A stretch of DNA of 37,615 bases, taken from a virus (taxonomy: Duplodnaviria > Heunggongvirae > Uroviricota > Caudoviricetes). Positions 28,044 through 37,615 of the stretch are shown here, one piece after another (the first letter of the stretch is position 1; each line of letters begins with the position of its first letter). Under the pieces are notes generated by a model that was given only the letters and a program-made list of their open reading frames with translations, was not told the DNA's origin and ran no database searches. The translations under genes and the position numbers were made by a program. Where the stretch lies: IMG/VR virus record IMGVR_UViG_2721755720_000002, positions 1 to 37,615 of that record, one strand, 5' to 3'.

Positions 28044-28689
28044 CGAAAGCTTCAAGAATAAATTGCTTCCCATGAATGGGTACATGAAAGGCGGCAGCGA
28101 CTCCGGCTCTAAAGCCCAGGCACGCGCAACTGAAAAGGGTATCGAATTGCAGCGTGAAATGTGGCAGACGAACATGCAAAACCTTGCACCTTTCACGCCA
28201 CTCGCTCAGCAGTACGTATCACAGTTGCAGAATCTTTCCTCTCTTCAGGGTCAAGGTCAGGCTCTTAACCAGTATTACAACTCTCAGCAGTACAAAGACC
28301 TTGCAGGTCAGGCGCGCTATCAGAGTCTGGCAGCAGCAGAGGCAACGGGTGGATTAGGCTCTACAGCAACCGGAAACCAGTTGGCAGCAATCGCGCCTAC
28401 ACTCGGTCAAAACTGGCTGTCAGGTCAGATGAACAACTACAACAATCTGGCAAATATCGGCCTTGGTGCTCTTACAGGTCAGGCAAACGCTGGGCAGAAC
28501 TACGCTAACAACGTCAGCCAATTGTATCAACAGCAGGCGGCAGCATCTGCGGCTAATGCGAATAAACCATCAGGATTTCAGAGCGCCTTGGGGGGAGCGG
28601 CAGCAGGTGCAGCTGCAGGTACTGCAATCATGCCTGGTTGGGGTACAGCAATTGGTGCTGGCGTCGGTCTTCTTGGTTCACTTTTTTAA
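28030..28689 (+). CDS. ejection protein (P22 gp7-like)
   Basis: 219 aa, Gly/Ala/Gln-rich, GAGGAG Shine-Dalgarno; position in the gp7-gp20-gp16 series. Confidence 0.6.
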   Translation: MLVLSESFKNKLLPMNGYMKGGSDSGSKAQARATEKGIELQREMWQTNMQNLAPFTPLAQQYVSQLQNLSSLQGQGQALNQYYNSQQYKDLAGQARYQSLAAAEATGGLGSTATGNQLAAIAPTLGQNWLSGQMNNYNNLANIGLGALTGQANAGQNYANNVSQLYQQQAAASAANANKPSGFQSALGGAAAGAAAGTAIMPGWGTAIGAGVGLLGSLF

Positions 28690-28701
28690 TGGAGGTGTCT
28701 C

Positions 28702-30096
28702 TTGGCTACATGGCAACAGGCTGGTAATTCAGGTGCGCTTCTTGCCGGGTTAGGCGGCATGAACTCCAACGCTCCAAGAGCAAGTGATGCAGACGCCACG
28801 CTTGCATACATTCGACAGAATAACGAGATGGAGCGTTCAGGACGTAATAACGTTGGCTTGCAGGCTTTGCAGGGCATTTCATCTGTCATGGATATGTATA
28901 AGCAGATGGATCAGCAGAAGCGGCAGCAAGAGTTTCAGCAGGCTTATGCTGATGCATATACATCTGGTGACCGCGATGCAATGCGAAAGCTGGCATCACA
29001 GTATCCTGAGCAGTTTGACGCTGTAAGAAACGGCATGAAATTTGTCGATGAAGACCAGCGTTCCACTGTCGGTACACTGGCAGCAAGTGCCAGACTCGCA
29101 GCTTCATCTCCAGAAGCCATGATGTCATGGTTGCAGAACAACTCATCTGAGCTTACTCGTGCCGGAGTAGACCCTCTGGATGTGGCGAAAATGTATCAGC
29201 AAAATCCACAAGGTTTCACAGAGTTTGTTGATCACCTTGGAATGGCTGCACTTGGTCCAGAACAATATTTTCAGGCGCAAGACAGAATCGTTGGGCGTGA
29301 GATTGATCGCGGAAAACTTGCAGAGACAATCCGCAGCAATCAGGCTGGCGAGGCGCTAACAGCACGAGGTCAGAACATCACGATGCGCGGTCAGGATTTA
29401 TCTGCTTCTACTGCGCGACGCGGGCAGGATTTGGCAATGCAGCGAGCGTCAACAAGAGGAACCGCTGGGAATGATGAGCGTACAGTTCAGTTATCAGATG
29501 GCAGAACTGTAACGGTTGGCGGGAAACTTCACGGAGCTGGGGCAAATGCGTTCTACGAAGGCATCGACAACGAGGGGAATATGGTTCGCGTTCCTGCCAG
29601 TTCAATCGCAGCGCCTGCAACATCGTCTGCATCAGCACAAAACTATGCCATGAAGAAGGATATCGACGCGATCGCAAATGCAGACGCTTCTGCTCTCGAT
29701 TTCATGACAGGAATGACCGGAGGCGCAGGTAACCCGGCAATTGGTGCTGATGTTCGCAGCCGATTAACAGGAAAAGAGCAGCGCCAGTTATATAACTCAG
29801 CACAACGTATTCAGGGCAGAATGCAGAATCAGGGTGTGGCGGCAGCAAGGGACATGGGGGCCAGTGGTATTAACACCGTTGCAGAAGCGAAGATGTATTT
29901 TCAGGGGATGCCGCAGGTTGACTATTCAAGCCCGGAGGCTATGCAGCAGTCGATTCGCGAGATTCAGGAATACACCAACAATTACAACCAACAATATAAC
30001 GTTAATGTTGGTAAATCTCAGCGGCAGCAATCTCAACCTGCACAGGTATCACAGCCAGCAGCCAGCAGTAACTTTTCTTCACTATGGGGTGATTAA
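28702..30096 (+). CDS. ejection protein (P22 gp20-like; probable TTG start)
   Basis: 464 aa; GGAGG 6 nt upstream of TTG at 28702; size and position match gp20. Confidence 0.6.
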
Positions 30097-32093
30097 TGGC
30101 TAAAGCATGGAAAGATGTTATCGCCTCTCCACAGTATCAGGCGTTAGCACCAGAACAAAAAGCGCAGGCTCAGGAGCAATACTTCAATGAAGTCGTGGCC
30201 CCGCAAGCCGGAGAAAATGCAGAGCAGGCTAAGCAAGCTTTCTATGCTGCCTATCCATTGCCATCTGTGCAGCCAGTGGATACACAGCAACCAGTAGCAC
30301 AGCAACAACCACAGCAAAGTGGATTTATGTCTGATCTTGGCGAAGCAGTAAAAGAGACTGGTCGCGGACTGGTGCAGGCTGGCGTGAACGTGGCAAACAT
30401 ACCTGCATCAGTTGCAGATGCTGTAACAAGCGCGGCGGCATGGGCTGGCGGTAAACTCGGTATTGGCGATGGTACATATCAGCCAGCGCCACGAGTAACA
30501 ACGCAGGGATTAGAGCAGGACTTTGGCCTTCAGCAAGGCGCGCTGACTCCACAAACGACAGAGGGAAGGGTATTTGCTGAAGCATTGCCTTACCTCACTC
30601 CTGCTGGCGTTGAGAGAGCGGCGGTACAGGCACCAACACTTGCTGGTCGAATTGCTCAGGGGGCAACTCGCCTTCTAGCAGAAAACGCAGTTGGATCACT
30701 TGCTGCAAATAGTGCGAAAGATGATGCGGAAGCACTCGCCACCGATTTAGGCGTTGGTGTACTTGCTGGCGGTGCTATTAACGCTGCCGGACGTGGATTA
30801 GGTGCTGCTTATCGTGGCGTTCGTGGTGCTATCGCGCCAGAAGCGCAGCAGGCTATCAGATTTGCAGAGCGTGAAGGAGTTCCTCTGCACACCACAGACC
30901 TGTTACAGCCTACTTCCCGCGTCGGGAAATTGGCGCAGACGACAGCGGAAAATATCCCCCTAGCTGGCACAAGCGGAATGAGAGCAACGCAACAGGAAGC
31001 GAGAAGCCAGTTGGTGCAGAGATTTGCTGATAAATTCGGTGAGTATGATCCAGCTGTTGTTATTGACAGCCTTAAAGCGAAAACATCAGGAATTCGTCGT
31101 GCTGCAGGGAACCGTCTTGAGCAGGTTCAGAATGCTATGGCTGGAGTAAACATTCAGCCTGCGCGAGCAATTCAGCAGATTGATACAGAATTATCTAACC
31201 TGCAGAAGCTTGGTAAGGTTGCTGATAACGAGACAATTTCAAAACTTCAGTCATATCGTGATGAGCTTGTTCGCAATGCTGGCCCTGATGGTCCGGTAAA
31301 TCTGGATTTGAAGCAATTAAGCGACCTGCGCAGCCAGTTCAGAATGGACGTGAAGGGTGAGCGACCAGTGTTACCAAACCGTTCCGATGCTGCCATTCAG
31401 CGCGTTTACAAGGCAATGACTGACGATATCAATGGTGCCATTGGTCAGAATCTTGGCAACGATACTCTCCGTAAATATCAGCAGGCCAATGCCGTCTACG
31501 CTGACGAAGCGGCGAAACTAAAGAATACCAGGCTGAAGAATGTTCTCATGAAAGGCGACCTGACGCCGGAAGTTGTCAACAACATGCTATTCAGCAAGAA
31601 CAAATCGGAAATTAAGACGCTGTATAACTCAGTTGGTCGTGTTGGCAGGGCGCAAATGCGCAATGGCATCATTGGAAAGGCGATGGAGAAATCTGGCGGA
31701 TCCCCTGACCAGTTCCTTCGGCAGCTTAACATCCTGCAAAACCAGACTGGCATCACATTTAAGGGGCAGGACGCTGCTTATCTGAAAGGATTAAAAAACT
31801 ATCTGCAATCCACGCAGCAGGCTGCAAAAGCGGCAGTAACAACACCCACAGGGCAGCAAACTATCCCGTTCATTATTGGGTATGGGACGGCAATGAACCC
31901 GGCGACAACTGGCGCAGCAGTAAGCTACGGACTTCTTACTCGCGCCTATGAGAGCGAGCTATTCAGAAATGCAATGCTCCGAATGGCAAACTCCCCACGC
32001 GGATCAACAGCGTTCGAGAAAGCCATGCAGCAGGCACAAAAGGCCATTAACGCCCTGACTCAGGGGGCTAAGTCTGATGCGCTGTCAGAATAG
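30096..32093 (+). CDS. ejection protein (P22 gp16-like)
   Basis: 665 aa; last gene of the ejection series, before the immI-like region. Confidence 0.6.
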   Translation: MAKAWKDVIASPQYQALAPEQKAQAQEQYFNEVVAPQAGENAEQAKQAFYAAYPLPSVQPVDTQQPVAQQQPQQSGFMSDLGEAVKETGRGLVQAGVNVANIPASVADAVTSAAAWAGGKLGIGDGTYQPAPRVTTQGLEQDFGLQQGALTPQTTEGRVFAEALPYLTPAGVERAAVQAPTLAGRIAQGATRLLAENAVGSLAANSAKDDAEALATDLGVGVLAGGAINAAGRGLGAAYRGVRGAIAPEAQQAIRFAEREGVPLHTTDLLQPTSRVGKLAQTTAENIPLAGTSGMRATQQEARSQLVQRFADKFGEYDPAVVIDSLKAKTSGIRRAAGNRLEQVQNAMAGVNIQPARAIQQIDTELSNLQKLGKVADNETISKLQSYRDELVRNAGPDGPVNLDLKQLSDLRSQFRMDVKGERPVLPNRSDAAIQRVYKAMTDDINGAIGQNLGNDTLRKYQQANAVYADEAAKLKNTRLKNVLMKGDLTPEVVNNMLFSKNKSEIKTLYNSVGRVGRAQMRNGIIGKAMEKSGGSPDQFLRQLNILQNQTGITFKGQDAAYLKGLKNYLQSTQQAAKAAVTTPTGQQTIPFIIGYGTAMNPATTGAAVSYGLLTRAYESELFRNAMLRMANSPRGSTAFEKAMQQAQKAINALTQGAKSDALSE

Positions 32094-32182
32094 CTTCGCA
32101 AATACCAGGAACGTGCAAAAACCAAATATGTAGAACGCAATATTCAGCATATCTCTGTGCATAAATCCTCCGTAACGGATGG

Positions 32183-32443
32183 TTATCTGCTGTCTTTTTT
32201 ATATAGCTTCTTGAGCGTATCAAAGACAATTTTCTTAACCATATCAGATTGTTGTTCTGCCATACGCTCTGCATCGTCAATGTAAACTGATGCAGAGCTT
32301 TGTTTATCCAATGATTCCTCAATCGCTGCAATTATCTCTGAGTTCAGCGATCTGTTATTCATCTTCGCACGCTGTTTAATCTTCGCGTGGAGTTCATGCG
32401 GAAGTCTCAAGTGAAACTGCGCCTCGTCGTATTTGCTGTACAT
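32183..32443 (-). CDS. mnt: Mnt-like ribbon-helix-helix repressor (86 aa)
   Basis: ATG at 32443; FHLRLPHELHAKIKQRAKMNNRSLNSEIIAAIEESL plus ...DMVKKIVFDTLKKLYKK parallel P22 Mnt as recalled. Confidence 0.7.
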   Translation of the reverse strand: MYSKYDEAQFHLRLPHELHAKIKQRAKMNNRSLNSEIIAAIEESLDKQSSASVYIDDAERMAEQQSDMVKKIVFDTLKKLYKKDSR

Positions 32444-32499
32444 CCTTGATGCCTCACCAGTTGGGTGGAATGGCATCGTAACCTACTGGATAAATACTC

Positions 32500-32540
32500 A
32501 ATAGTACCATTTCGGTATGCAATCACATCATGGTTGCATC
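32500..32540. promoter_or_regulatory. candidate operator and divergent promoter region between mnt and the tailspike
   Basis: Imperfect inverted repeats TACC-ATTTC-GGTA and ATGCAA...TTGCAT within the 120-bp intergenic region. Confidence 0.3.
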
Positions 32541-32564
32541 ATATCATTCGTCTGGAGCAATGAA

Positions 32565-34976
32565 ATGTCAGATATCACCGCAAATGTTGTGGTAAGCATG
32601 CCTTCGCAACTCTTCACTATGGCGCGTTCTTTTAAAGCCGTAGCCAATGGCAAAATTTATATCGGTAAAATTGATACTGACCCTGTAAATCCTGAAAACC
32701 AGATTCAGGTTTATGTGGAGAACGAAGACGGTTCTCACGTTCCTGTTTCTCAACCAATCATCATTAACGCTGCTGGTTACCCGGTATATAACGGACAGAT
32801 TGCCAAATTCGTAACTATGCAAGGCCATTCTATGGCTGTATATGATGCGTACGGTTCTCAGCAATTCAATTACCCAAACGTTCTTAAATACGACCCTGAC
32901 CAGTTGCGTCAGGAGCTTGGCGGTTACGATGGCGCAAAGGTCATCGGTGAGTGTCCAGACATCGAAACGCTAAGGACTATTGAGCCACAGGAAAACAGTC
33001 AGCGCATTATCGTCCGCCATCACACCCTTAATTCTGGTTACGGTGGTGGTCAGTTCCGTTCCCGCCTTGATGGTTCATCGTACACAGATAACAATGGCAC
33101 GGTCATCAAGACTACGGGTGGCGCAGTGTGGCTGCGTATCAATGCCGATATTATAAACCCTCTGATGTTCGGCGCGATCCCAGACGGTGTTACTGATTGT
33201 TCAAGTGCGTTCACTAATGCACTTTCGGCTGGTAGCATTGTTGTTCCTGACGGTGAATTCAAAATATCAAACGTGCAGGTTCCCACTAAAACAAGCATTC
33301 GTGGTAACGGGTACAAATCTAAAATCGTTGTTCCTACAGGCCAGGCATCGTTCCTAGTTGGGAATTCCTCTGCGGCTACAACAATAGATTATTTCGATGG
33401 TTGTAATATTTCTGATTTGCATATTTGGTCTGATTCAGTAGCGGCTGGCACCATTGGGATAATCACGAACGGAATTAGCTCTTCAAGATTTGAAAACATT
33501 GTTTATACCAAAACAAACATTGTTATTCGTCAGGACCATGCGGAAGGCTGTACTTTCAGAAATATCAGTAACTCTGATTTGGAAAATGGTGATACTGACC
33601 CTGTGTTTGTGATTTTTTCTCAGATAAATAAACGTTCAAATGATAATTCATATTTAAACTTTGTAGCGAGAAGTAGTGATACAGAGATTTATTTAGGAAT
33701 GGTAGGTGGTGGTGACGTAACTGTGGCACAGCACGATGGCATCACTATCGAAGACTGCATTCTGTTTCCGTGTCAGAAGGATAACATTTATGTTGCAAAC
33801 GGAAGGATGGGTAGGATCTCAAATAATGAGTTGTTTGTAGCTGGAAGAAATGGAATTCGCATAGACGCAGTTGTAACAAACATGTCAATTACAGGGAATA
33901 ATATTCCTTGGTCTGGAAGATTTACTGCAGGCGGGGCTGATGCAATACTGGTGCAAACAGTGGCTGGTAGCGCTTCTTCCGCAGTTGGACAGGTGGATAT
34001 TAGCAATAACATCATCAGTATGCCTTCTGGCTGCGGAATGAGGGTTGCTGGGATTGGTCAAGTAACTATTACTAATAACACTATTGTCTCTCCAAATAAC
34101 ATTAAAACAACAGTGACTGGACCATTCACTGCTAAGCAATATGACGGAATAAGGATTAACGGAGCTTGCGGATATATATTTGTATCTGATAACCATGTCA
34201 CCACAGGAAGACACGGTCAGGGCGGTGATGATTTCTCAACGAACTGGAGATATGATGTTTTTGTTGAGTCTACCGTCATAAATGGAGTTGTTAAGCATCC
34301 TGGAATAAATGTTTTAAATCTTTCGCCTTACATTGATGTACAACTCCCTATAACTAGATATATTCAGGGTCGACATCAGACTCTATACAAGGAGGTTAAC
34401 AGTCCGTACGCAACAACTAACTGGAGGGTTGCCTCAGGAACGGGAACCATATCAGCAGTATCTGCAACTAATCCATACTCTGGGGAGTTAACAAATACCG
34501 TATTGCAGTTTGTAAACACATCCGGAACTTCAATTTTCTCAAGAGGAGAAAATACCACAACTGCGGGTGACCCAATTGGCGCTGTTTTTAAGGTTAGGTG
34601 CACATCTCCGACATCCGCTTATGTTACGTTCAGTATTGTAGTTGGCGGTTCGGTCTTTGTTCAGAGAAGCATAATGGTAGGTGCAGGGTGGGGTGAGATA
34701 GACATGCGCAGACTGGGAGCGCCTGCAGGGGTTGTTGCTTTTCAGGTTTCAATATCAGATATATGCACCATACAAATAGCCGAAGTTAGGGTGACCAAGA
34801 CCACAGAAGCGCCCCAATTATCAGGTACATATTATGGAACATCAATCCCTACATCCGGCTACTATAAGGTTGGAGATATAGTTAAAAACTCAGTCCCAAC
34901 ACCTGGATCTCCGAGAGGCTGGGTGTGCACAGCGTCAGGGACTCCAGGATCATGGGTATCAGAAGGAAATCTGTGA
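32565..34976 (+). CDS. tailspike: P22-type head-binding N-domain fused to a divergent beta-helix receptor-binding domain (803 aa)
   Basis: GGAG Shine-Dalgarno then ATG at 32565; [56 protein letters not shown] matches the P22 gp9 N-terminus; remainder has beta-helix-like repeats and is AT-richer. Confidence 0.85.
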
Positions 34977-34980
34977 AGAA

Positions 34981-34996
34981 GCGCCACGGATGGCGC
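34981..34996. terminator. candidate bidirectional terminator hairpin between the convergent tailspike and AlgJ-like genes
   Basis: GCGCCA-CGGA-TGGCGC, with a T-rich tract on the plus side. Confidence 0.4.
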
Positions 34997-35001
34997 AAAT
35001 G

Positions 35002-36123
35002 TTATTTTGGAAGATTAGTAAACCAAGGGATTGTCATTGCCTGGCGTTCAACCGCAGTGACTATTACCAGATCAGGTTTATAGGTACCAATTATGCGCGT
35101 CATAATTTCAGGTGTCGCCATAACAGCCTGATAATGCTGCTGGAATATGTTGGAGAAGGTAGCGTTCATGAACGGTTCCATTCCATCACCAAATGAATCA
35201 CGTAACCACAAGACCTTCATTGAGTTAAGTGCAGTTTCATTCCTGGTTTCCTGAGGAACATTACGATGTATGGTAGAGTTATCAATCGGTAACACTTTTT
35301 TGAATGCCCCATACCAGTCATAAACCTTGACAGTCTTTGCACCAGGTACTTTTGCAGTGTACTCAACATCTATTAGAGAGTCCTGAAGGCGAAGGAATCT
35401 ACTAAGGTCACCACCATTTCGTGATGATGCTGAAATATCAACGTCTTTATCGGTGAGCCATTTTATATTAGGTACTTGTTGAGAAATTCTATGCGAAATC
35501 TCCTTGTAACCGGCCCATGCACCTCTTTTGTTCCAGTGGGTATCGGTTTTATAATATAGAGGGCCATTATTCTTCAAGTTATCAAAAGACGCACCCATAT
35601 TGATGAAGGTGTGATCGCCTTTTGCTGAAGACAAGAGGTATTGAGTGTTTCTGCTACCGCCATTTTCGATAAGCCATTTTGGCGAAAACTCGGGGTAAAC
35701 TGTATGTTTATCTGGAGCAAAGCTTACAAAGTATCCCTTGCCGCCATAACTTTTGACGTAACTATCCCAGGCAATCCTTGCTTTAGCCATTTTGTCTATC
35801 TGCGGCCTGATATCCTTTGTAAGATTCCTCTTTTCTGAAAGAGTGTTTGAATATTTATCACCAAGGAACAGCCATCCATTTTTACCAACTATGGTCTCTT
35901 CAGGATAAAGAGATATCCCAACTTTATATAGCACACCAGACAGAGGCGGGATTGCAGAGTCAAGGTTATACAGACCATCAACGTTAAACCAATCAGTAAC
36001 ATCAGTTTTAGAGAAGTCAATAATTTTCGCACCATTAATAGCACCATCTTTAACATTTACCAACGGCGCTATCATTAAAAGAGCGAGTGAACTCACAGCA
36101 AAACTACAGATGTATTTTTTCAC
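35002..36123 (-). CDS. AlgJ/AlgX-like SGNH-type periplasmic O-acetyltransferase partner with N-terminal signal anchor (373 aa from GTG; ATG at 36162 possible)
   Basis: GAGGAG then 6 nt then GTG at 36123; hydrophobic N-terminus ICSFAVSSLALLMIAPLV; YYKTDTHWNKRG motif resembling the AlgJ/AlgX catalytic D-x-H-W; LRDSFG downstream; overlaps the MBOAT stop. Confidence 0.6.
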   Translation of the reverse strand: MKKYICSFAVSSLALLMIAPLVNVKDGAINGAKIIDFSKTDVTDWFNVDGLYNLDSAIPPLSGVLYKVGISLYPEETIVGKNGWLFLGDKYSNTLSEKRNLTKDIRPQIDKMAKARIAWDSYVKSYGGKGYFVSFAPDKHTVYPEFSPKWLIENGGSRNTQYLLSSAKGDHTFINMGASFDNLKNNGPLYYKTDTHWNKRGAWAGYKEISHRISQQVPNIKWLTDKDVDISASSRNGGDLSRFLRLQDSLIDVEYTAKVPGAKTVKVYDWYGAFKKVLPIDNSTIHRNVPQETRNETALNSMKVLWLRDSFGDGMEPFMNATFSNIFQQHYQAVMATPEIMTRIIGTYKPDLVIVTAVERQAMTIPWFTNLPK

Positions 36124-36133
36124 GACTCGCTCC

Positions 36134-37615
36134 TCAGAAATTAAAATACAGGAAAACTGCATTTGTGGATTTTATGGTTGCATACACGGCAGTTACAAAA
36201 AGAACAACCATACATATTGTTTTAATACCATAAGACCCCTTGGCGATGGTCATTTCGTATGAGTTTTTTAATGGGGTGATTATGAAACCAATTAATATCA
36301 ACGAATAGCAAAGGAAGTTCTCAACAATTCCAACGGGAAGGAATGTTGATAATTTATCTGTAAATACGCCACCCCATGCCAGCATGTCAGTTGGAGCATT
36401 CTGAATGGATAGTGCACTTACTGAACCAATGTCAATCATTCCTCGCAGGATACGCATGGCATCGCCTACAGAATGAGCACGGAAGAAAACCCACGCAACG
36501 TTAACAAACATAAATGTAATAAACCATGCCAGAACCGAAGGTAGCGAGAACCCTCTACGCTTCCACCATCGGTGGATGACAAGAGCGCCACCATGCAGCA
36601 CGCCCCATATGATAAACATCCAACTTGCACCGTGCCACAGCCCACCCAGAACGAACGTAGCAAACAGATTAAAATACACCCTGGCGCTGGAACATCGGTT
36701 CCCACCCAAAGGGATGTATATATAATCGCGAAGATAGCGACCAAGGGTTATGTGCCATCTGCGCCAAAAGTCCTGTATATCAAAAGATTTGTATGGTGAA
36801 TTGAAGTTTAGAGGGAGCCATATGTTAAAGAGAAGCGCGGCCCCGATCGCCATGTCACAGTAACCACTAAAATCAAAATAAAGTTGAAATGTGTAAGAAA
36901 GACTGGCGGCCCATGAGCTAAAGAAATCATGCTGCGCCCCAGGTGCAAACCCTGCATCTGCGAACACTGCAAAGTTATCCGCGATAACAACCTTCTTGAA
37001 TAACCCAACACTGAAGATAAACAACCCCATAAAAATATTTCTGTATCTTATAGCGCAATTCCACTTAGACTGGAACTGGGTCATCATCTCTTTATGGTGA
37101 AGTATTGGCCCTGCTATAAGGTGCGGGAAGAATGTTACGAACAATGCATAGTTGACGAAGTCATACTCTTTAGCGCTCCCTCTGTAACTATCAACAAGAA
37201 AAGCCGTTTGGGTAAAAGTATAAAAACTAATACCGAGTGGAAGTATTATGTTCCTAAAAGTAAGCTCATAACCGCTAAGAGCATTGAAATTCTCAATGAA
37301 GAAGTTTGTGTATTTATAATAACCAAGCAAAGACAAATTCACGATAATAGCTATTGTTAAAATTGCCTTACGCGAAAACGGTATTCTGACCCCTTTGACA
37401 TGCGGAGAGACAGCCCCTCCGGCAATGAAGTTGAAAAGGATGGAACCTAACAATAATGGGAGATAGCTCACATCCCAATAGCCATAGAAGAAGAGACTGC
37501 AAGCCACAAGCCAAACCTTTCCAGCGTATACCATTCTGATTTTATTTAAGAAAAAGTACACAAAGAAGGATATAGGCAAAAACAGAAAAATGAATACAGG
37601 AGTACTGAAAAGCAT
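36134..37615 (-). CDS. MBOAT-family membrane-bound O-acyltransferase (AlgI/DltB/PatA-like, 493 aa); start codon is the last three bases of the window
   Basis: Multi-pass membrane protein; N-terminus MLFSTPVFIFLFLPISFFVYFFL; FWRRWHITLGRYLRDYIYIPLGG and LWHGASW motifs carrying the conserved MBOAT His; AT-rich coding region. Confidence 0.85.
   Translation of the reverse strand: MLFSTPVFIFLFLPISFFVYFFLNKIRMVYAGKVWLVACSLFFYGYWDVSYLPLLLGSILFNFIAGGAVSPHVKGVRIPFSRKAILTIAIIVNLSLLGYYKYTNFFIENFNALSGYELTFRNIILPLGISFYTFTQTAFLVDSYRGSAKEYDFVNYALFVTFFPHLIAGPILHHKEMMTQFQSKWNCAIRYRNIFMGLFIFSVGLFKKVVIADNFAVFADAGFAPGAQHDFFSSWAASLSYTFQLYFDFSGYCDMAIGAALLFNIWLPLNFNSPYKSFDIQDFWRRWHITLGRYLRDYIYIPLGGNRCSSARVYFNLFATFVLGGLWHGASWMFIIWGVLHGGALVIHRWWKRRGFSLPSVLAWFITFMFVNVAWVFFRAHSVGDAMRILRGMIDIGSVSALSIQNAPTDMLAWGGVFTDKLSTFLPVGIVENFLCYSLILIGFIITPLKNSYEMTIAKGSYGIKTICMVVLFVTAVYATIKSTNAVFLYFNF

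Follow-up and report, generated by a model that had tools for sequence, protein, structure and literature searches.

The tailspike gene of the prophage described here combines a conserved virion adaptor of the P22 type with a rare receptor-binding domain and lies beside a pair of predicted acetyltransferase genes to which this domain is linked. The gene occupies positions 32565-34976 (plus strand) of the 37,615-nucleotide stretch of virus record IMGVR_UViG_2721755720_000002 (below, the window) and encodes an intact protein of 803 amino acids, as judged from the list of open reading frames (ORFs) and from Pfam matches to Head_binding and Beta_helix. Sequence comparison identifies the phage as an Sf6/HK620-like (Lederbergvirus-type) Escherichia coli prophage. 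A preliminary description, made without database searches, had proposed that the tailspike is chimeric; the comparisons below agree with this and indicate that the chimeric layout is real and far beyond chance. Taken as a whole, the data make it likely that this is a tailspike of the Sf6/HK620-like kind built from modules, that the O-antigen of E. coli serogroup O180 is its candidate receptor, and that the linked acetyltransferase cassette masks this receptor.

The backbone of the phage can be aligned to Sf6 and HK620 over 49-58% of nucleotides 1-25000, with 96-98% identity, and the tailspike gene closes the late operon, downstream of the genes for the ejection proteins and of immI, as expected of a P22-like genome; in the annotations of two related prophages, that of E. 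coli strain CEC15 (L001) and the P22-like prophage L002, gp7-, gp20- and gp16-like genes followed by Mnt likewise precede the spike. The head-binding domain, i.e., the virion adaptor (residues 1-112, positions 32565-32900, plus strand), was delimited by Pfam, PDB and phage DNA matches. Pfam Head_binding (PF09008) matches residues 1-113 over the full profile (1-113 of 113) with an E-value of 1.6e-65, the PDB chains of Sf6 gp14 and P22 gp9 match residues 1-117 (E 8e-65 and ~1e-48, respectively), and in a Foldseek search the N-terminal domain was 89% identical to Sf6 gp14N (rank 50). The earlier observation that the first ~110 residues parallel P22 gp9 is thus borne out. In a megablast search of 50,697 phage records, DNA similarity (82-92%, to HK620, Sf6, IME10, CUS-3 and epsilon34) is limited to the part of the gene from nucleotide 1 to ~341-350. 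Past residue 117, no sequence match to the receptor domains of P22, Sf6 and HK620 was found among PDB chains with phmmer at E<=1, and the tailspike stays outside the receptor-domain subtypes of these three phages, the members of a subtype sharing ~30% identity or more along the domain (PMC10408124).

The point at which one module gives way to the other was located by comparison with relatives, not by composition, and it falls where the preliminary description had looked for it, near position 32900. Homology to tailspikes with other N-terminal adaptors (Tail_spike_N or T7-fibre type) starts at residue 113, and the tailspike of L009, which has a non-P22 adaptor, aligns with ours from this residue on. 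The CEC15 gene differs from that of the window by 18 mismatches within 32594-32868 and by only 3 in the remaining 2.1 kb. The alignment start in L009 and the mismatch pattern in CEC15 therefore place the module junction, or recombination boundary, at residues 113-118 (QLRQEL; positions 32901-32918, plus strand).

The part that follows the junction was said in the preliminary description to be unlike the receptor-binding domains of P22, Sf6 and HK620. This is correct for these three phages, but residues 118-~300 do resemble a characterised protein, tailspike protein 2 (TSP2) of phage CBA120, with residues 255-438 of which they align at E 4e-31. The aligned region consists of the D3' module, named according to the nomenclature of TSP2 domains (PMC7506556), and the first rungs of the helix; the tail spike of phiV10 is similar over nearly the same stretch (43% identity over residues ~117-295). 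The neck module proper (residues 118-205, positions 32916-33179, plus strand; Pfam PF27114, Phage_tail_beta), which corresponds to D3' of TSP2, is 56-100% identical in 29 of the 29 aligned tailspikes, whatever helix they carry. Judging from these alignments, the TSP2- and phiV10-like stretch is a shared neck with the first rungs and not the part that determines specificity.

The neck is followed by a right-handed parallel beta-helix (residues ~206-600, positions 33180-34364, plus strand), the presumed glycan-binding and depolymerase body and the AT-richest part of the gene, which was recognized by AlphaFold2 modelling, Foldseek and Pfam PF13229. The AlphaFold2 model of the whole protein, which has a mean predicted local distance difference test score (pLDDT) of 74 and values of 85-96 over residues 130-550, contains a long right-handed beta-helix; the model is a monomer, in which inter-subunit clefts are not visible. 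Foldseek matched it to many tailspike helices with a probability of 1.00, the best PDB neighbours being CBA120 TSP2, the Klebsiella tailspike K2-2 TSP, TSP4, Sf6 and several capsule depolymerases. Pfam Beta_helix (PF13229) covers residues 387-508 with 27.2 bits against a threshold of 25.9. Next comes a C-terminal jelly-roll domain (residues ~620-745, positions 34422-34799, plus strand) that resembles carbohydrate-binding modules (CBMs): the AlphaFold2 model of residues 591-803 is a jelly roll with a pLDDT of 88, and Foldseek relates it to CBM22, CBM4, CBM61 and CBM16 and to the C-terminal domains of CBA120 TSP4, K2-2 TSP and Kp7 gp52. The protein thus has the domain order of TSP2, in which the D3' neck is followed by the D3 helix and the C-terminal D4 domain. 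The last 28 residues (776-803, positions 34890-34973, plus strand) form a conserved C-terminal motif, a 3' homology block that is 61-89% identical even where the helix is less than 20% identical.

The receptor domain is rare. The best coverage of it by any record of the phage collection was at most 26% (tblastn), nothing above 25% identity was found in BFVD, and scans of IMG/VR and of GTDB representatives returned no close relative. Among 5426 complete E. coli genomes, the domain was found only in CEC15. A search of 5.8 billion proteins yielded ~20 clusters with full-length similarity. The cluster formed at 99% identity, with 47 member sequences, and two clusters at 87%, found in the P22-like prophage L002, carry the head-binding adaptor. 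Ten clusters at 72-78% have mostly Tail_spike_N or T7-fibre type adaptors and are found in lytic-type contigs (one of them in L007); relative P0014 (63%) has a T7-fibre type adaptor and belongs to the T7-like phage L017, and the other relatives (38-57%) have mixed adaptors. The statement of the preliminary description that the receptor type is not known is consistent with these searches, which returned no characterised near-identical spike in the phage collection, PDB, BFVD, IMG/VR or the GTDB representatives.

Downstream of the tailspike, two genes on the minus strand, 10 nucleotides apart, make up the cassette. The one closer to the spike (35002-36123, 373 amino acids, GTG start) encodes a predicted AlgX/AlgJ-type SGNH-like polysaccharide O-acetyltransferase (PF16822, E 1.2e-14); a longer ATG-initiated ORF starts at 36162, and the CEC15 annotation uses the 373-residue form. 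This AlgX-like protein has a hydrophobic N-terminus, matches Bacillus cereus PatB1 (weakly, E 5e-6) and AlgJ in PDB, and shares DTHW and RDSFG motifs with gp40 of Pseudomonas phage JBD44. The other gene (36134-37615, 493 amino acids), whose start codon coincides with the final three nucleotides of the window, encodes a predicted MBOAT-family membrane acyltransferase (PF03062, E 6.5e-35; DltB structures, E 3e-27) in which the WRRWHITL motif of JBD44 gp41, with the conserved histidine of MBOAT proteins, is kept. With NCBIfam, no family was found above cutoff for the tailspike, AlgX-like and MBOAT proteins, the match of the latter to DltB being far under the cutoff. The MBOAT protein is 70% identical to JBD44 gp41 over all 493 residues and the AlgX-like protein is 36.6% identical to gp40 over 93% of its length; homologues of the AlgX-like protein in the phage collection come only from JBD44-group Pseudomonas phages.

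The similarity to JBD44 (L008) extends to gene arrangement: there, too, gp41 (MBOAT) is followed by gp40 (AlgX-like), and the two converge on gp39, the tailspike gene. A preprint describes gp40-gp41, with reference to earlier work, as acetylating the O-antigen of serotype O10 (bioRxiv 10.1101/2024.03.05.583538). The proposal that the cassette of the window could modify the polysaccharide to which the spike binds thereby gains support, for its closest described homologue is a tailspike-adjacent pair reported to acetylate the O-antigen receptor of the phage. It was further reported that deletion of gp40-41 leads to ~10^4-fold fewer spontaneously released phage in lysogen cultures and leaves the induced burst unaffected (bioRxiv 10.1101/2024.03.05.583538). 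In JBD44 the cassette has a guanine-plus-cytosine (GC) content of 43% and the adjacent spike gene one of 54.6%; the cassette is therefore foreign to this phage as well. At the DNA level, JBD44 (L008 3508-6119) reaches 73-79% identity to the MBOAT gene of the window in 150-nucleotide windows. The comparison suggests that a low-GC cassette crossed between phages of different bacterial orders. JBD44 gp39 was considered as a homologue of the spike itself and rejected, as it has only a weak match to the neck module (E 0.003).

What polysaccharide the spike recognizes can be approached through its sole carrier among complete genomes. Strain CEC15 has been typed as O180:H14 (PMC10680302); annotation assigns its wzx and wzy genes to the O180 family. 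The O180 wzx-wzy pair is found in 6 of the 5426 complete E. coli genomes, so that the chance of the only carrier of the receptor domain being O180 by accident is ~0.001, a figure that reflects one observation only. The receptor-protein subtypes of Lederbergvirus prophages track the O-serogroup of the host, and an O180 subtype is not mentioned among them (PMC10408124); our literature search found no paper tying O180 to a tailspike. Relatives with a 44%-identical domain hold gtrABC, an O-antigen glucosylation module, in the slot occupied here by the cassette. Because the sole carrier is an O180 strain, the serogroup is rare and the subtypes follow the O-serogroup, we propose with moderate confidence that the receptor is an O-antigen and that O180 is the candidate serogroup. 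In CEC15, the prophage is inserted between sbcB and dacD, with the his operon next to it and the O180 O-antigen cluster (galF-gnd) at a distance of ~23 kb; the spike, the cassette and the O-antigen genes could therefore be transferred together on one chromosomal segment.

It is also conceivable, if unlikely, that the receptor is not an O-antigen at all, being instead colanic acid, a capsule or the enterobacterial common antigen, and that the cassette acetylates this exopolysaccharide. Over residues 1-682, the highest-scoring PHROG family is named 'tail spike protein with colanic acid degradation activity', and the P22-like phage CUS-3, which has an endosialidase tailspike, demonstrates that a capsule-specific spike can use the same adaptor. 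Most of the PHROG score comes, however, from the head-binding domain and the neck, since families matching residues 1-207 only already reach 315 bits compared to 367. The AlgX/AlgJ-MBOAT pairs classically modify exopolysaccharides such as alginate and cellulose, and the roles of bacterial MBOATs listed in a 2022 review are confined to alginate, cellulose, peptidoglycan and teichoic acid (PMC9558356). Yet the nearest functionally described cassette, that of JBD44, is described as acting on O-antigen, the equivalent slot in relatives carries an O-antigen module, and the sole genome with the domain belongs to a rare O-serogroup.

The preliminary description had further suggested that the receptor domain was acquired together with the cassette, and the distribution of both argues for this. 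From position 32868 on, the window and CEC15 differ by 8 mismatches in 4.7 kb, 5 of them in the 2.6 kb of the cassette, and the near-identical block that the two share with L002 crosses the boundary between spike and cassette. The receptor domain is accompanied by both the AlgX-like and the MBOAT gene in four backgrounds besides the window (CEC15, L002, L009 and L016). In L002, with a receptor domain 87% identical to ours, the DNA of both cassette genes is 100% identical; in L009, the values for the receptor domain, AlgX-like and MBOAT proteins are 76%, 89.5% and 94%, and in L016 they are 57%, 88% and 93%. AlgX-like copies that are 88-100% identical always adjoin this receptor-domain family. 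In the Enterobacter prophage L010, where the spike is unrelated, the AlgX-like and MBOAT proteins are 68% and 85% identical to those of the window, and in the P2-like prophage L011, which has no adjacent spike, 55% and 81%. Such a pattern, with conservation of the membrane partner and divergence of the acceptor-side enzyme in step with that of the spike, would be expected if enzyme and spike read the same glycan. These comparisons support inheritance of the receptor domain and the cassette as one block. We suggest more tentatively, as an idea that may well prove wrong, that the receptor domain belongs with the MBOAT/AlgX-like pair to a single mobile unit which recognizes and masks a glycan and moves as a block between unrelated phages, the AlgX-like enzyme co-evolving with the specificity of the spike.

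Several facts weigh against the proposal of an O180-specific spike with a receptor-masking cassette. The O180 link depends on one complete genome. The catalytic residues of TSP2 (Asp506, Glu568 and Asp571) lie in an inter-subunit cleft (PMC7506556) and fall outside the region that can be aligned by sequence, and catalytic residues could not be mapped onto the spike. There are relatives of the receptor domain that have no cassette, the slot being empty in L003 (57%) and filled with gtrABC in L004-6 (44%), and there is a relative of the cassette, in L011, next to which no spike is found. From such cassette-less spikes and the spike-less cassette it follows that the slot is also a general cargo, or seroconversion, site where modules replace each other. 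The adjacency of spike and cassette might then be a coincidence, the cassette being an independent moron at the right end of the prophage that acts on an unrelated polymer, e.g., peptidoglycan, as PatA/PatB do. The empty or gtrABC-filled slots of related prophages and the occurrence of cassette relatives away from spikes or beside the unrelated Enterobacter one would fit such an explanation, as would the PatB name of the enzyme to which the AlgX-like protein is most similar in sequence among PDB entries. We nevertheless consider it quite improbable, because the AlgX-like protein, likely the acceptor-specific partner, co-varies with the receptor domain and, where at least 88% identical, is found only next to members of this domain family, the MBOAT partner remaining 81-94% identical throughout, and because the block of near-identity with CEC15 and L002 spans the boundary between spike and cassette. 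The match to B. cereus PatB1 is itself weak, and this enzyme acetylates a secondary cell wall polysaccharide and is not known to act on peptidoglycan.

Finally, that the spike binds its receptor without cleaving it or survives as a non-functional remnant of a defective prophage, as the failure to assign a catalytic pair, the Beta_helix score barely over threshold and an IS66 insertion in the early region of the CEC15 prophage might be taken to mean, is very hard to reconcile with an intact ORF that has a good ribosome-binding site and belongs to so populous a 99%-identity cluster, with six acidic residues of the helix (D345, D360, D391, D406, D527 and D564) that are invariant in relatives at 35-100% identity, with close structural neighbours that are all active depolymerases, and with the use of the same domain by lytic phages, in which it is necessarily functional.

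The interpretation that we favour, a module-built spike whose O-antigen receptor is masked in the lysogen, can be described as a sequence of steps. Residues 1-112 of the trimeric spike would dock onto a P22-type tail, and the helix (residues ~206-600), as modelled, would bind and most probably cleave the repeats of the host O-antigen, allowing the virion to reach the outer membrane. In the lysogen, the MBOAT protein would pass acetyl groups to the periplasmic AlgX-like transferase, which most likely O-acetylates the same polysaccharide, so that spikes of the same specificity could no longer bind or cut it. Masking of this kind would block superinfection and spare released progeny from loss on sibling lysogens.

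The gene is chimeric at more levels than the preliminary description had proposed, for alignment with relatives shows the receptor domain to be an internal patchwork. Although their cassettes are identical, the spikes of the window and L002 differ in patches: nucleotide identity is 100% at 32940-33540, 71% at 33540-33690, 97% at 33690-34140, 62-67% at 34140-34890 and 95-100% afterwards. The segment at 34140-34890 (plus strand; residues ~526-775), which comprises the distal helix and the C-terminal domain and is flanked by regions 97-100% identical to L002, has thus been swapped. Over residues 526-775, L002 groups with lytic-phage spikes that are 93-98% identical to one another, and the allele of the window and CEC15 is rarer, with P0005 (83%) as its nearest relative. 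Over residues 206-331, one allele (97-98%) is common to the window, L002 and P0004, and the others are 62-71% identical to it. The central helix (residues 332-525) is the most conserved part, with 81-98% identity within the group of spikes whose receptor domains are 72-100% identical. The sharp allele boundaries mark the places where recombination reshuffles the spike without changing the central helix. The blocks that bracket the variable core (32916-33179 and 34890-34973) are conserved across phage genera, and the neck and terminal blocks likely serve as handles for homologous recombination between temperate and lytic phages. Conserved motifs beside receptor domains have been reported in lytic genera and not in Lederbergvirus prophages (PMC10408124), a pattern from which the spike described here may depart.

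Base composition, on which the preliminary description had relied, is a weak argument for chimerism. The receptor part was said to be AT-richer, but its GC content (43.7%) is slightly above that of the head-binding part (43.0%). Compared to 47.3% in the whole window (1-37,615) and 49.5% in the structural genes, the drop begins already at ~32100; it is followed by a local high at 32750-33200 (48-52%), the true low in the helix core (residues 332-640; 40.8%, with 32% at third codon positions) and 46-49% at 34400-35000. The 600-nucleotide windows of the helix core have GC fractions of 0.395-0.41, below the value of 0.429 that marks the 5th percentile elsewhere in the window, and are similar in composition to the cassette genes (40.5% for AlgX-like and 41.5% for MBOAT). 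Composition is therefore non-uniform across the gene, as had been anticipated, but the breakpoints lie elsewhere than at 32900 and 35000. Since the head-binding part is equally AT-rich and GC content fluctuates inside the gene, we discarded composition breakpoints as the main evidence for a chimera.

The start of the tailspike gene at ATG 32565 yields a canonical tailspike N-terminus, is equivalent to the RefSeq start of the CEC15 homologue, annotated as 'phage tailspike protein', and is preceded by the ribosome-binding site GGAG (32553-32556, plus strand), read from the sequence, 8 nucleotides ahead of the ATG. An in-frame ATG at 32517, 48 nucleotides upstream, would add 16 residues; it was rejected as the homologues are without these residues and the ribosome-binding site favours 32565, and automated ORF callers may pick the wrong start because of it. 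In the 25-nucleotide gap between the convergent stop codons, a GC-rich hairpin at 34981-34996 (assigned to no strand) is a possible bidirectional terminator; terminator and promoter scans of the window gave nothing above the expectation from shuffled sequence, and the hairpin is a consensus match only. Neither Rfam families nor tRNA genes turned up in scans of the window.

Other features of the prophage and its relatives vary around the same genes. Between the gp16-like gene and the tailspike gene, the immI region (32094-32564) has only an mnt-like gene (32183-32476, minus strand), compared to sieA, a gene of no assigned name, mnt, arc and ant in L002 and to mnt, arc, ant and a Rap1a-domain gene in L005 and L006. 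The gp16-like ejection protein of 665 amino acids has a longer counterpart in CEC15 (797 amino acids, annotated with a lytic transglycosylase domain); the 5' part of its gene (30312-30511) is ~80% identical to CEC15 and the rest 94-99%, which looks like another mosaic boundary. Farther upstream the window and CEC15 differ strongly, identity at ~28087-29244 being only about 75%. In L015 (2779-6726), a truncated AlgX-like gene (241 amino acids, 81% identical) stands beside intact gtrABC and a Peptidase_S24 gene; phage structural genes are absent from the vicinity, and the locus looks like a remnant in which one module for serotype conversion took the place of another. Several prophages that otherwise differ (L001 13188-13577; L002 13188-13574; L004 and L005 11375-11761; L010 5981-6370; L011 4557-6119; L015 2039-2422) have a small gene of the Peptidase_S24 family (HumD/UmuD-like) just past the conversion cassette, be the latter of the MBOAT/AlgX-like or the gtrABC type; in the P2-like L011 it is accompanied by an IMS (UmuC-like) gene.

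That receptor domains are exchanged behind the head-binding adaptor of P22 is textbook knowledge. Less ordinary are the MBOAT-SGNH cassette in an enterobacterial P22-like prophage, its relation across genera to that of JBD44 and the sharp allele boundaries within the tailspike gene. Tailspike receptor domains decide which strains can be infected and also serve as serotyping and biocontrol reagents. If O180 specificity holds true, the domain would be a new receptor subtype for a rare serogroup, absent from the published catalogue of E. coli subtypes (PMC10408124). If the proposed modification is real as well, MBOAT-SGNH pairs would constitute a third class of O-antigen seroconversion in enterobacteria, beside Gtr and acyltransferase-3, that is shared with Pseudomonas phages, and the O-acetylated O180 variant would be a new phage-encoded serotype. 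The linkage of spike and cassette offers a directly testable E. coli model of receptor masking by non-classical seroconversion.

Compared with known systems, the tailspike is closest in design to P22 gp9, Sf6 gp14 and HK620 gp9, with which it shares the head-binding domain, the position of the gene after those for the ejection proteins and mnt, the beta-helix and the serotype-conversion slot that follows. It differs from them in the lack of any similarity after residue ~117, in the additional D3'-like neck, CBM-like domain and terminal motif, and in length (803 amino acids compared to 623 in Sf6 gp14 and 666-667 in P22 gp9, as PDB chains). The best structural neighbour is CBA120 TSP2 (ORF211; PDB 5w6p and 6w4q; Foldseek E 2e-20), which has a different N-terminal adaptor and only ~16% identity over the whole structure. 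The tail spike of phiV10 is specific for O157, and there is no evidence of O157 specificity for the spike of the window. The gp39-gp40-gp41 ('anti-Kronos') module of JBD44 has the same gene order and orientation, and both cassettes are low in GC (41-43%) relative to their phages; apart from the weak match of the neck, however, the spikes are unrelated, the host belongs to another genus, and the acceptor-side enzyme has diverged strongly, so the target sugar is presumably not the same. The acyltransferase-3 Oac of Sf6 and the gtrABC modules of P22 and SfV also lie beside the tailspike at the end of the prophage and presumably modify the O-antigen that the phage itself uses as a receptor, but they belong to other enzyme families than the MBOAT protein and its separate SGNH-like partner in the prophage described here.

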